Source: Escherichia coli
GTDB taxonomy: Bacteria > Pseudomonadota > Gammaproteobacteria > Enterobacterales > Enterobacteriaceae
Reading direction: 5' to 3' (one strand)
NCBI RefSeq assembly: GCF_003334255.1
Contig: NZ_QOWU01000052.1
Length of the DNA stretch: 41,323 bases
Below, piece by piece: positions 24,591 to 40,936 of the stretch. Below the pieces are notes generated by a model. The model searched no databases, was not told where the DNA came from, and saw only the letters and a program-made list of their open reading frames with translations. The stretch's first letter is position 1; the number at the start of each line of letters is the position of its first letter. A program made the position numbers and the translations under genes.

Positions 24591-25010
24591 TTATCTCTCA
24601 AGTTCGTTCAGTGCATTTTTGACACGCTCTCTTAAACCGGCTTTCTCTTCGCTTTCTTCCACAGTATTTTCTTCGTCTTCAGAAGAAGAGGGGGCATTCT
24701 CAACCGCGACGCCTGGGTCATCTTCCTCCTCGACGGATTCGACGACGGGGAGTGGCTGTTTTTTGAAGAAATAGTGTTGTGTTGATTGTTTAAAAGCGGG
24801 CGTTTCAGCCTCTACAGTGACTTCGGCTTTTACTATCCAAAGCACCCATAGCTGCCTGGCATACCCACCAACCAGCACCATTCCTGCAAACCACAGGCAA
24901 ATCAGTAATAAACAAATTACATATATTATGGTGCTGTGTTTTTGTCGGGAGAAGATACCAGGGTGACCTGTTTCTTTCTGCTCACGCGCGGCGATATAGA
25001 ATTCAAACAT
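24591..25010 (-). CDS. gspB: GspB, T2SS accessory protein (139 aa) with a single TM segment and acidic C-terminal region
   Basis: Translation MFEFYIAAREQKETGHPGIFSRQKHSTIIYVICLLLICLWFAGMVLVGG...; directly downstream of gspA. Confidence 0.85.
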   Translation of the reverse strand: MFEFYIAAREQKETGHPGIFSRQKHSTIIYVICLLLICLWFAGMVLVGGYARQLWVLWIVKAEVTVEAETPAFKQSTQHYFFKKQPLPVVESVEEEDDPGVAVENAPSSSEDEENTVEESEEKAGLRERVKNALNELER

Positions 25011-25011
25011 G

Positions 25012-38235: not shown

Positions 38236-38242
38236 AACACAT

Positions 38243-40936
38243 TTATTGCTTAGTAAACGGCGCGAAGATTTCGCTAAATGCGTACTTCGGTGCCTGTTCT
38301 TTAGTCAGGCCGTGGAATTCCGGAGACAGGTTAGTGCCGCCCGGCAGGTCGCGCGCGATTGACCAGATACCAACCATACCGAGATTACGCTTCTGCGCAT
38401 CCTGCATGACCAGACGAGCATCAGAGAGATAGAACACCTCGCCCTGAACGTCGTTCACGCCAACCATCGGCGTGGTACCCATCATAGCGTCAATTTCTGC
38501 ATCGCTCTTATTGGGATGGAGGCCTTTCAATTGTGAATGCAGGTTGGCAATCGCAGACGTTGCACACTTACCGTGAATGTTCTGGCCTTCGGTATTTGCA
38601 GACTGACAAATCGCGTTACCGTAGTCCATTGTCATCACGTTCACACCCGCCAGCTCAACACCTTTCGCTTTGGCATCGCTCAGGACATTCATCCCTTCCG
38701 GCGTCAGGCCAGTCGGCAGAATTGGCAAGGTGTACCAGATAGCAATATCTTTGCCTTCTGACTTCCATTTATCCTGCACTTTCTTCACAGCAAGGTTACG
38801 ACGTTCAATAGATGCCTGATCCGCAACCCAGGTGCCTTCGATATCGAAGTCCAGGACTTTGAGGTTCAGGTTATCAACGATGTCATAATAATGCTGCATC
38901 AGATCGTCTACGTTCTTACAGGAAGCAGCCAGCGGAGCGTTGTTAGCACCACCGATAGACAGCATCACATCGCCGCCAGCCTCACGCAGAGCTTTGATTT
39001 TGCTGTACTGAGCGTAATTCTGCATACCGTAAGCGGTACCCCATGTCGGCAGACAGGTGTTCGCATCTTTACTCACCACAAACGCCAGCGTGAAGTGGTT
39101 GACGTTATGATTCTTAGCCAGCGCAGCCAGATCCGGGATCGTATTCAGCGTAAAGTCGACATACGGTGCATAAACGTGTTTCGGCCACGCTTTCTTCGGC
39201 GTACCTACGCGCTCTTTGGTTCCGGTCCAGTCAACAAAAACACGCCACGGGTTGCTGTCAGAAGGAGAAACTTTCTGCACTTTACTCTGAGAAATGTAGT
39301 TCACACCGTTAAAGCGAATCAGCGTATCGCTGGCATAAAGCGTTTCTGGATTAAACTGCGGCGCATTATTCAGCTCTTCGTTGCTATAGCTCTGAGCCTT
39401 ACCTAACGGCTTCCACGGGCGGCTATTGCTACCGGTGGCGTTTTGGTTCGCCACCAGAGCAGGGTTGTCACTTTGCGTCCAGAACAGCGCTTCATAAGCC
39501 TGCCCATCAACAACAACGCGATCACCTTTCACGTACACAGTGGATGCGGACCATGCTTTCGCCGGTTCGTATTTCTTCCACGGGTTATCGCCGCCCGGGA
39601 CAAAGCCCCATGCGTCTTGATCGACAGAAGTTTTATAATGTGCATCGTTATAATCTACGATGCTGTCCGCGCTGTACGCTTTGCTGGCCTGGAAACCATC
39701 CGCAACAATGACGCCGCCGTTATCAATTTCACAGGTAGTCGGGTTACCGTACTGACTCAATTCCGCAGCGGTAGCTGTACGCTCGAGACGCCATGGGTTA
39801 TTGGAGTTTTCAGCGCTGGTACCCCGTGGGCAATCTTTAGACCCAACCCACCAGGCGTTCTTGTAAACATTACCATTGAAAATAACATGGTAAATTTCGC
39901 TACCTTCCTGGCCGCTCCACGCTTGCAATGAGTAATCGTTAACGCTATCCGCTGGTGTTGATGGCTCGCTGTTATCCGGAGTTGGGGTCACCGGTGTTTC
40001 CGGAGTTGGATCAACCGGAGTCACAGCACCGCCATTATTATCCGGCTTAACGGAACAGGAGCCAGGGTTACCATACTGGCTGATTTCTGTTGCCGTTGCC
40101 GCGCGAACATAACGCCATGGGTTACTGGCATCGTTTTCTTTCGCATCGCCTGGGCAATTTGCCGCGCCTACCCACCAGGCGTTCTTATAAATGCCGCCGT
40201 TATAGATAACGTACCATGTAGAAGAACCTTCCTGACCTTTCCAGGCTACTACAGCATAGTTGTCGTTTGACTTATCAGCTGGGGCTGGCTGAACATCAGG
40301 AGCCGGTTTAACGTCCGGTGCCGGTTTCACATCCGGTGAAGGCTGTGGTGCTGAAGTACAGGACTGTGGATTACTGGTTTCTGAGATTTCCGTTGCCGTA
40401 GCGGCACGAACATAACGCCATGGGTTGCTGGCATCATTGCTTTTCGCATCACCCGGACAGTTAGAAGAGGCTACCCACCAGGCATTTTTATATACCGCAC
40501 CATTAAAGACGACATACCAGGTCTGACCGCCCTGCTGTTTATTCCAGGCAACTACAGAAGAATTAGACGGAACAGTGCCCTGTGCTGGTGTAGCCGAACC
40601 GCCATTAGCCGGCGTATTGGATGCAGGCGTATTTGAATTTGAAGAAGATGAGCTGCCGCTCTTTTCGCAGGAAAGTGTATTGCCAAACTGACTAATTTCA
40701 GCAGCTGTTGCGGTACGCTTTAAACGCCACGGGTTAGTTGCATCATTTGCTTTCGCTTTTCCCGGGCAATTTGTAGAAGAAACCCACCAGGCATTTTCAT
40801 AAATTTTGCCATCGAAAATAACCTGATATTTATTACCACCTTGTTGGTTATTCCATGCTTCCATTGCCAATGCTGGCAGAGCGGAACACACCAGCCCCAT
40901 ACCAATCATAGATTTAGTAAATATATTTAATTTCAT
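38243..40936 (-). CDS. chiA: Periplasmic/secreted endochitinase ChiA (YheB), 897 aa: signal peptide, four tandem chitin-binding repeats with Pro/Ser/Thr-rich linkers, C-terminal GH18-like catalytic domain
   Basis: Signal peptide MKLNIFTKSMIGMGLVCSALPALA; four ~60-aa repeats of the form AW...YxNAWWV...NCPG...NPWR...ATAxEISQxGN; linker with PAPDVK x3; catalytic region with LDFDIEG (DxDxE) motif. Confidence 0.95.
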   Translation of the reverse strand: MKLNIFTKSMIGMGLVCSALPALAMEAWNNQQGGNKYQVIFDGKIYENAWWVSSTNCPGKAKANDATNPWRLKRTATAAEISQFGNTLSCEKSGSSSSSNSNTPASNTPANGGSATPAQGTVPSNSSVVAWNKQQGGQTWYVVFNGAVYKNAWWVASSNCPGDAKSNDASNPWRYVRAATATEISETSNPQSCTSAPQPSPDVKPAPDVKPAPDVQPAPADKSNDNYAVVAWKGQEGSSTWYVIYNGGIYKNAWWVGAANCPGDAKENDASNPWRYVRAATATEISQYGNPGSCSVKPDNNGGAVTPVDPTPETPVTPTPDNSEPSTPADSVNDYSLQAWSGQEGSEIYHVIFNGNVYKNAWWVGSKDCPRGTSAENSNNPWRLERTATAAELSQYGNPTTCEIDNGGVIVADGFQASKAYSADSIVDYNDAHYKTSVDQDAWGFVPGGDNPWKKYEPAKAWSASTVYVKGDRVVVDGQAYEALFWTQSDNPALVANQNATGSNSRPWKPLGKAQSYSNEELNNAPQFNPETLYASDTLIRFNGVNYISQSKVQKVSPSDSNPWRVFVDWTGTKERVGTPKKAWPKHVYAPYVDFTLNTIPDLAALAKNHNVNHFTLAFVVSKDANTCLPTWGTAYGMQNYAQYSKIKALREAGGDVMLSIGGANNAPLAASCKNVDDLMQHYYDIVDNLNLKVLDFDIEGTWVADQASIERRNLAVKKVQDKWKSEGKDIAIWYTLPILPTGLTPEGMNVLSDAKAKGVELAGVNVMTMDYGNAICQSANTEGQNIHGKCATSAIANLHSQLKGLHPNKSDAEIDAMMGTTPMVGVNDVQGEVFYLSDARLVMQDAQKRNLGMVGIWSIARDLPGGTNLSPEFHGLTKEQAPKYAFSEIFAPFTKQ
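39760..40870 (-). repeat. Four direct, diverged ~300-bp DNA repeats inside chiA encoding the chitin-binding modules
   Basis: Recurrent cgccatgggtt...cccaccaggc(g/a)tt...t(a/t)taaa blocks starting near 39790, 40113, 40413 and 40724. Confidence 0.8.

Follow-up and report, generated by a model that had tools for sequence, protein, structure and literature searches.

The Escherichia coli DNA considered here (41,323 nucleotides from RefSeq assembly GCF_003334255.1, contig NZ_QOWU01000052.1; this whole stretch is called the window in what follows) carries, at positions 24591-40936, a block of type II secretion system (T2SS) genes lodged between the S10 ribosomal protein operon and tufA. Such a location raises two questions: which secretion system is encoded beside the genes of the translation machinery, and how the block is related to what other genomes carry at the same place. 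With a probability of about 97%, the locus is the chromosomal T2SS-alpha of E. coli in its K-12 form, together with the gene for its substrate, the chitinase ChiA. This is an already known system, which has been described since 1996-2000 and has also been studied structurally. The locus is treated in PMC5797941, PMC10329019, PMC3707838 and PMC11390585, so that the first-pass annotation, made from the DNA letters, was right to call it described rather than novel.

The identity of the locus follows from its comparison with K-12. The alignment of the window with MG1655 (NC_000913.3, 3428918-3470240) is ungapped and contains two mismatches in 41,322 aligned bases (99.995% identity), namely G for A at 26565, between gspA and gspC, and G for A at 36672, which places Gly at codon 16 of gspO where MG1655 has Asp16. 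Gly16 is common in the species, since 1,423 of 3,108 genomes match the Gly-containing 57-mer exactly. GspO is therefore the only one of the 14 Gsp proteins that differs from MG1655 (D16G), and ChiA, bacterioferritin (Bfr) and the bacterioferritin-associated ferredoxin (Bfd) are identical to their MG1655 counterparts as well; the source strain is K-12-like, but it is not MG1655 itself. Comparison with the K-12 proteins had been proposed as a check on whether these reading frames are Gsp homologues at all, and it leaves that assignment standing. The gene map was taken from the RefSeq annotation of MG1655 and of the near-identical commensal strain G1/2 and put into window coordinates; on this identical or near-identical DNA RefSeq names gspB, gspA, gspC-gspM, gspO, bfr, bfd, chiA and tuf. 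Positions 24591-40936 run exactly from the low end of gspB, stop codon included, to the base at which the minus-strand start codon of chiA begins, and each of the 17 open reading frames (ORFs) in between opens with a start codon and is free of internal stops.

The first-pass annotation had described a full T2SS gene set, with gspAB divergent from gspC-O, placed between the S10 operon and tufA and followed by bfd-bfr and chiA, and each of these points is borne out by the map and by protein models. NCBIfam equivalog models with curated cut-offs were exceeded by GspB, C, D, E, F, G, H, I, K and L and by Bfr and Bfd, and Pfam was used for GspA, GspM, GspO and ChiA, so that C to M, O and the accessory gspAB are all matched. 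On the minus strand, next to rpsJ (24042-24353, minus), lie gspB (24591-25010; 139 amino acids; NF007250, 287 bits against a cut-off of 180), which encodes an accessory secretin-assembly factor and partner of GspA, and gspA (25012-26481; 489 amino acids), which encodes an AAA+ ATPase with a peptidoglycan-binding domain. In GspA, Pfam finds AAA_22 (residues 19-137), GspA_C39-like (299-392) and PG_binding_1 (408-462), and the Walker A motif GEAGSGKT lies at residue 26. The plus-strand genes begin with gspC (26661-27476; 271 amino acids, GTG start; TIGR01713, 293.6 bits against 101.6), whose inner-membrane product contacts the secretin, and gspD (27460-29412; 650 amino acids; TIGR02517, 649 bits against 351), which encodes the outer-membrane secretin, GspD-alpha, of the Klebsiella type. 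They are followed by gspE (29422-30903; 493 amino acids; TIGR02533, 656.8 bits against 630.25), the cytoplasmic assembly ATPase with the Walker A motif GPTGSGKS at residue 249, and gspF (30900-32096; 398 amino acids; TIGR02120, 548.7 bits against 424), an inner-membrane platform protein.

The pseudopilin genes come next on the same strand: gspG for the major pseudopilin (32106-32543; 145 amino acids; TIGR01710, 184 bits; prepilin leader ending in QRG/FTLLE) and, for the minor ones, gspH (32551-33060), gspI (33057-33434), gspJ (33427-34014) and gspK (34007-34990). GspH, GspI and GspK exceed the cut-offs of TIGR01708, TIGR01707 and NF037980. GspJ, with 63.2 bits against the 64.85 required by TIGR01711, is the least typical of the pseudopilins, and it still has the TIGR02532 N-terminal domain. 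Prepilin-type N-termini of the forms G/FTLLE, G/MTLLE or G/VALL are found in all five proteins. Related to gspK, an annotated pseudogene with an internal stop was observed in the cluster-bearing B2 strain E. coli O18:H1 CFSAN067215 (locus coordinates 10211-11194), which indicates that some lineages keep an inactivated copy. The plus-strand series ends with gspL (35005-36168; TIGR01709, 148.3 bits) and gspM (36165-36626; Pfam T2SSM, 131 bits, E = 5.8e-38), both for the inner-membrane assembly platform, and gspO (36626-37303; 225 amino acids), which encodes the prepilin peptidase. In GspO, Pfam detects Peptidase_A24 (residues 82-190, E = 3.6e-30) and no N-terminal methyltransferase-type or Cys-rich domain; the G-x-G-D pattern is matched by GYGD at residue 155. 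On the minus strand lie bfr (37332-37808; TIGR00754, 279.7 bits) and bfd (37880-38074; NF007803, 143 bits), both as the alleles of the long haplotype defined below, and chiA (38243-40936; 897 amino acids), before tufA (from 41228, minus) is reached.

The assignment of the block to Gsp proteins and ChiA is far beyond chance, and nothing in the sequence speaks against T2SS-alpha. What can be held against the complete reading is that silencing and ChiA secretion rest on papers that cite Francetic et al. (1996, 2000) and not on the sequence, that a rare single-nucleotide polymorphism (SNP) lies inside a proposed SlyA box, and that GspJ falls 1.6 bits below its NCBIfam cut-off.

Systems assembled from similar parts have to be distinguished from T2SS-alpha. 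The cluster could in principle be the Vibrio-type T2SS-beta, which secretes heat-labile toxin (LT) and SslE, or a type IV pilus or competence cluster of the hof/ppd kind, since GspD, GspE, GspF and GspG have secondary matches to PilQ, PilB, PilC, HofQ, HofC and ComG models. Their best matches, however, are T2SS equivalogs, and these are the only models above cut-off. E. coli T2SS-beta (yghJ/sslE-pppA-yghG-gspC-M beta) is likewise a type II system, but it is located elsewhere on the chromosome, its secretin is of the Vibrio type and needs the AspS/YghG pilotin, and its substrates are LT and SslE (PMC3542185, PMC3707838); its markers yghJ/sslE, pppA and yghG/aspS are not found in the annotated window, and the rpsJ-bfr site belongs to T2SS-alpha (PMC3032704). 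Residues 24-650 of GspD match the full 627 residues of PDB chain 5WQ7, which we take to be the K-12 GspD structure, with 1356 bits, and no other secretin structure exceeds 723 bits, the score of 6HCG, presumably the Klebsiella secretin. We therefore give the T2SS-beta and pilus readings no credence. Compared with the K-12 T2SS-alpha (gspAB/gspC-O, b3322-b3335; ChiA, b3338), the window has the same locus and gene order and differs by the rare 26565G in the proposed SlyA box and by Gly16 in GspO.

As had been noted from the DNA alone, no gspN and no gspS pilotin gene are visible in the window. The non-coding gaps in the block measure 237, 179, 28, 71, 168 and 291 bp and are too short to leave room for either gene. 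A hidden gspN or gspS was sought among 17 alternative-frame ORFs of at least 80 amino acids, not one of which matches any NCBIfam model, and a gene for a PulS/OutS-family lipoprotein was not found in the block; the remainder of the window consists of housekeeping genes. An Rfam search at the gathering threshold over the whole window returned nothing in the gsp block. Its sole match, Alpha_RBS (RF00140, 102.7 bits) at 13522-13633 on the minus strand, upstream of rpsM, corresponds to the translational operator of the alpha operon to which S4 binds, as expected there.

In having no pilotin gene, this cluster differs from some related systems. Pul of Klebsiella oxytoca and Out of Dickeya share with it the core C-M and O and the class of secretin (PMC10329019, PMC3542185), but they encode the PulS/OutS pilotin, and often GspN, inside the cluster, whereas the window has gspAB and neither of those genes. 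Through its gspAB it resembles the ExeAB-dependent T2SS of Aeromonas and the EpsAB-dependent one of Vibrio, which also have adjoining genes for GspB and for an AAA+/peptidoglycan-binding GspA. In the literature, GspAB-type proteins are assigned to the passage of the secretin across the peptidoglycan, and GspA and GspB have been considered a possible alternative route for GspD-alpha (PMC10329019), which according to this literature accounts in part for the missing pilotin gene. For E. coli GspD-alpha, a role of GspAB in assembly is proposed and not demonstrated in the cited papers. Besides, yacC, a gene of the PulS/OutS family, is found elsewhere in E. coli genomes, and a role for it as pilotin has not been demonstrated (PMC3542185).

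ChiA is the cargo secreted by T2SS-alpha according to the literature, in which the secretion of the chitinase by this system is reported (PMC10329019). Its Pfam architecture consists of two CBM_5_12 domains and a C-terminal Glyco_hydro_18 domain (609-805), and PDB chitinases match residues 584-895 with E = 1e-37 to 2e-46. The N-terminus is hydrophobic and signal-peptide-like (MKLNIFTKSMIGMGLVCSALPALAMEAW, also given as MKLNIFTKSMIGMGLVCSALPALA), a description made from the residues themselves and not from a cleavage-site prediction. The N-terminal 40% of the protein (residues ~22-400; window 39758-40873, codons ~22-393), which is blank in Pfam, is made up of four tandem modules of ~100 amino acids. 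A CBM5/12-like motif, AW..Q.GG...Y.V.F.G..Y.NAWWV...CPG, stands at the start of each module, and a Pro/Ser/Thr-rich linker comes after it; the evidence for the modules is a DNA repeat family and the four AWW motifs. Counting the two Pfam domains as well, ChiA would thus have as many as six modules for binding chitin. Wherever E. coli genomes were inspected, chiA and the gsp genes are present together or missing together.

From what is known of these protein families, the way in which the system would work can be outlined. ChiA would cross the inner membrane, presumably through Sec, and would fold in the periplasm. The pseudopilins GspG, H, I, J and K would lose a short leader cut by GspO, and the GspE ATPase, placed on the GspF/L/M platform with GspC, would drive a short GspG pseudopilus with GspH-I-J-K at its tip, whose growth would push ChiA through the GspD secretin in the outer membrane. 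GspA and GspB, in a cluster with no local pilotin, are likely helpers that take the secretin multimer through the cell wall. The last step, silencing, is taken from the literature: in laboratory K-12, the very AT-rich control regions of gspA/gspC and chiA are reported to be silenced by H-NS, so that the system is cryptic, and SlyA can counteract this at gspC. In PMC5797941, gspC-O is described as a cryptic operon under H-NS repression and SlyA activation, with ChiA as its supposed export substrate and chiA likewise silenced by H-NS. PMC5797941, PMC10329019, PMC3707838 and PMC11390585 agree in presenting gspC-O as cryptic, as repressed by H-NS and as the exporter of ChiA, all of them citing Francetic et al. 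(1996, 2000).

The base composition of the control regions agrees with this picture. The 179-bp divergent region between gspA and gspC (26482-26660) has 23.5% G+C and the full 291-bp gap between chiA and tufA, which includes the chiA upstream region (40937-41175), has 30%, values that are consistent with silencing when set against the 49.5% of the window. Silencing by H-NS at this locus is stated in the literature (PMC5797941, PMC11390585), and the low G+C of the control regions supports it indirectly.

A silent locus might also be a decaying, non-functional relic, with ChiA released, if at all, by some other route. In favour of this it can be said that the system is silent in laboratory K-12 (PMC5797941), that about 41.5% of E. 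coli genomes are without the cluster, that at least one B2 strain has a gspK interrupted by a stop codon and that overexpressed GspD-alpha remains mostly in the inner membrane (PMC10329019). Here, however, all 14 gsp ORFs and chiA are intact, and the proteins are identical to K-12 proteins which have been reported to be functional once derepressed. Furthermore, the 179-bp control region is 100% identical in K-12 (phylogroup A) and in a B2 strain whose cluster is 2.6% apart (97.4% identity overall), which argues for purifying selection, and deletion of chiA lowers the adherence of mastitis isolates (PMC11390585). Decay is accordingly a very improbable explanation of this locus, and T2SS-alpha is retained as a complete and presumably silenced system.

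The control regions contain some smaller elements. The allele 26565G is rare, as the 57-nt segment 26537-26593 has an exact match in only 10 of 3,123 genomes, with A at 26565 assumed for the remaining genomes as in the two strains aligned. It alters the SlyA box proposed in PMC5797941 (plus strand, 26555-26566) from TTATATTAGTAA to TCATATTAGTAA; since SlyA binding and H-NS repression at gspC have been reported (PMC5797941), regulation in this strain might differ slightly from that of K-12. Upstream of chiA, by 148-193 bp, there is an AT-rich palindrome with 20-nt arms (41084-41103 and 41110-41129), 18 of 20 positions paired and a 6-nt spacer, a degree of pairing reached in none of 300 dinucleotide shuffles of the intergenic region. 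The B2 allele preserves it except for a single change, and in the cassette of the uncultured bacterium UBA5654 described below it cannot be aligned; it may be an operator. The string ATATGAATAA(A/T) was observed in three AT-rich regions, gspA/gspC (26542-26573), bfd-chiA (38144-38175) and upstream of chiA (41103-41134). It was rejected as a shared regulatory motif and is regarded as probably due to chance in DNA of low complexity, and its gspA/gspC copy exists only because of the rare 26565G allele. A scan of 24300-26800 for promoter and terminator consensus sequences gave no excess over shuffled sequence (5 against 4.5 and 2 against 2.4, respectively).

The second question is how the block is distributed. 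Positions 1-24000 of the window are covered in all of the 5,426 complete E. coli genomes used for the counts, whereas the gsp-chiA block reaches at least 80% coverage in 3,036 of them, which agrees with the earlier description of it as the sole accessory-like block of the window. The remaining genomes do not simply have a vacant site. The flanks in O157:H7 are 99.8% identical to the window up to 24537 and 99.3% identical from 41176 (blastn), and between them the long allele of 16,638 bp found here (24538-41175; T2SS-alpha, gspO, bfr, bfd and chiA) is replaced by a short allele of 1,532 bp (locus coordinates 3039-4570), which contains genes for a 155-amino-acid prepilin peptidase, Bfr and Bfd. 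The short allele, which occurs in O157:H7 and others and is shared with many Enterobacteriaceae, keeps the order and orientation of the long one, with the peptidase gene followed by bfr and bfd, but it has no gspA-M and no chiA. It is present at 95% identity or more in 2,252 of the 5,426 genomes (about 41.5%). In a further 3,156 genomes the match to it is limited to bfr/bfd and to identities of 60-80%, a sign of a long-type allele in those genomes; the long form is found in about 56-58% of the total. E. coli is therefore dimorphic for the whole rpsJ-tufA interval, and the block is the only variable part of the window.

The two alleles are deeply diverged. The short-allele peptidase shares 40.6% amino-acid identity with GspO; Bfr is 89.7% identical at the amino-acid level and about 80% at the nucleotide level, with a saturated synonymous divergence (dS) of about 1.55; Bfd is 87.5% identical in amino acids, and the bfr/bfd DNA as a whole is 77-80% identical. 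As a consequence bfr and bfd are part of the variable haplotype and not a fixed frame around an insertion. A simple deletion as the origin of the short allele is ruled out by the identities of 41% for the peptidase and 77% for bfr/bfd. Genomes that lack the cluster carry a diverged but homologous cassette, which implies allelic replacement rather than simple deletion.

The same comparison bears on the possibility that the block is a mobile genomic island recently inserted between rpsJ and bfr, as its variable presence among E. coli genomes might suggest. The alternative allele has its own peptidase, bfr and bfd, the annotation of the block shows no integrase, insertion sequence element or tRNA gene, flanking direct repeats were not found, and the G+C content of the block (48.9%) is close to that of the window (49.5%). 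Moreover, the order tufA-(chiA)-bfd-bfr-gspO...gspD recurs in several other Enterobacterales genera, among the matches listed, so a recent insertion is given hardly any weight.

The comparison of synteny among relatives, which the first-pass annotation had suggested, was made with Bfr as anchor in one genome per species, and the matches listed come from loci other than those of E. coli, E. albertii, E. fergusonii and Salmonella. Among these matches, tufA-(chiA)-bfd-bfr-gspO...gspD is found in Yokenella, Chimaeribacter, Enterobacter sichuanensis, Citrobacter amalonaticus, Trabulsiella and Rahnella, and the short order rpsJ-peptidase-bfr-bfd-tufA in Kluyvera and Pluralibacter; Silvania shows the short-allele order too, in a stretch that does not include rpsJ. 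The presence of the cassette in several genera indicates that a T2SS at this site is old and patchy. Short-type Bfr is 95-99% identical to the proteins of Citrobacter, Phytobacter, Pluralibacter and Raoultella, against 88-92% for K-12-type Bfr, again among the matches listed. The closest cassette outside E. coli in that set belongs to the uncultured Enterobacteriaceae bacterium UBA5654 (tufA-chiA-bfd-bfr-gspO...gspD, locus coordinates 6730-20446), with identities of 84% for GspD, 79% for GspE, 83% for GspG and 73% for ChiA. K-12-type bfr groups with UBA5654 in a neighbour-joining tree, and on these sequence relationships UBA5654 may represent a candidate donor lineage of the long allele. A metagenome-assembled genome, Citrobacter sp. 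HRGM_Genome_0066, was also observed to have K-12-type Bfr (100%) and GspK-O and ChiA at 95-98%; the contig has the appearance of E. coli-type DNA that was placed in a Citrobacter bin.

The boundaries of the two alleles fall at well-defined places. On the left, the change at 24537/24538 lies inside the spacer of a promoter-like element on the minus strand (24531-24558), with a -35 TTGCGT at 24553-24558, a 16-nt spacer and a -10 TATAAT at 24531-24536. Its position ~180 nt upstream of rpsJ suggests that it is the S10 operon promoter. In the alignment with the O157 haplotype the -10 belongs to the shared flank and the spacer diverges, and both alleles keep the octamer with the -35 element, GCTTGCGT, amid otherwise diverged sequence; the gspB stop codon lies ~32 bp upstream of this -35. 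On the right, in the direction in which tufA is transcribed, the boundary at 41175/41176 (blastn) is reached 52 bp after the stop codon, shortly beyond the terminator hairpin of the gene (41183-41198, minus strand; GGGCGC-TTCG-GCGCCC followed by a T run). The simplest explanation of the two alleles would be that the whole interval was replaced by recombination in the translation genes that flank it and hardly vary. A more far-reaching proposal, the odds of which appear evenly balanced, is that rpsJ-tufA is an ancient two-allele cassette, probably of inter-genus origin, which is swapped by homologous recombination at the S10-promoter spacer and past the tufA terminator, with those translation genes serving as homology arms; its short form would consist of the 155-amino-acid peptidase gene and a Citrobacter-like bfr and bfd. 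The dimorphism itself is directly observed. An account of this allele divergence was not found in the literature searched, and it may still have been described. The allele-replacement view is a modest refinement and the sole element of this analysis that goes beyond the literature consulted.

The correct annotation of the locus has practical value, and it provides context for work on ChiA and T2SS-alpha in adherent-invasive and mastitis E. coli. If the two-allele reading is true, some published observations would be understood differently. For strain W and further B1 strains a 'gspO-rpsJ deletion' has been assumed (PMC3032704), which would in fact be an allelic replacement. In a pan-genome study, bfr and bfd have been tied to mammary-gland fitness, at exactly the frequencies of the gsp genes (PMC11390585). 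Equal frequencies are what linkage of divergent alleles would produce, and bfr and bfd appear 'accessory' only because the two alleles are too divergent to cluster together, so that their association with fitness would be a hitch-hiking of allele clusters. The relevance for pan-genome studies of E. coli is modest: the presence or absence of T2SS-alpha would have to be counted as one haplotype and not as 17 independent genes.

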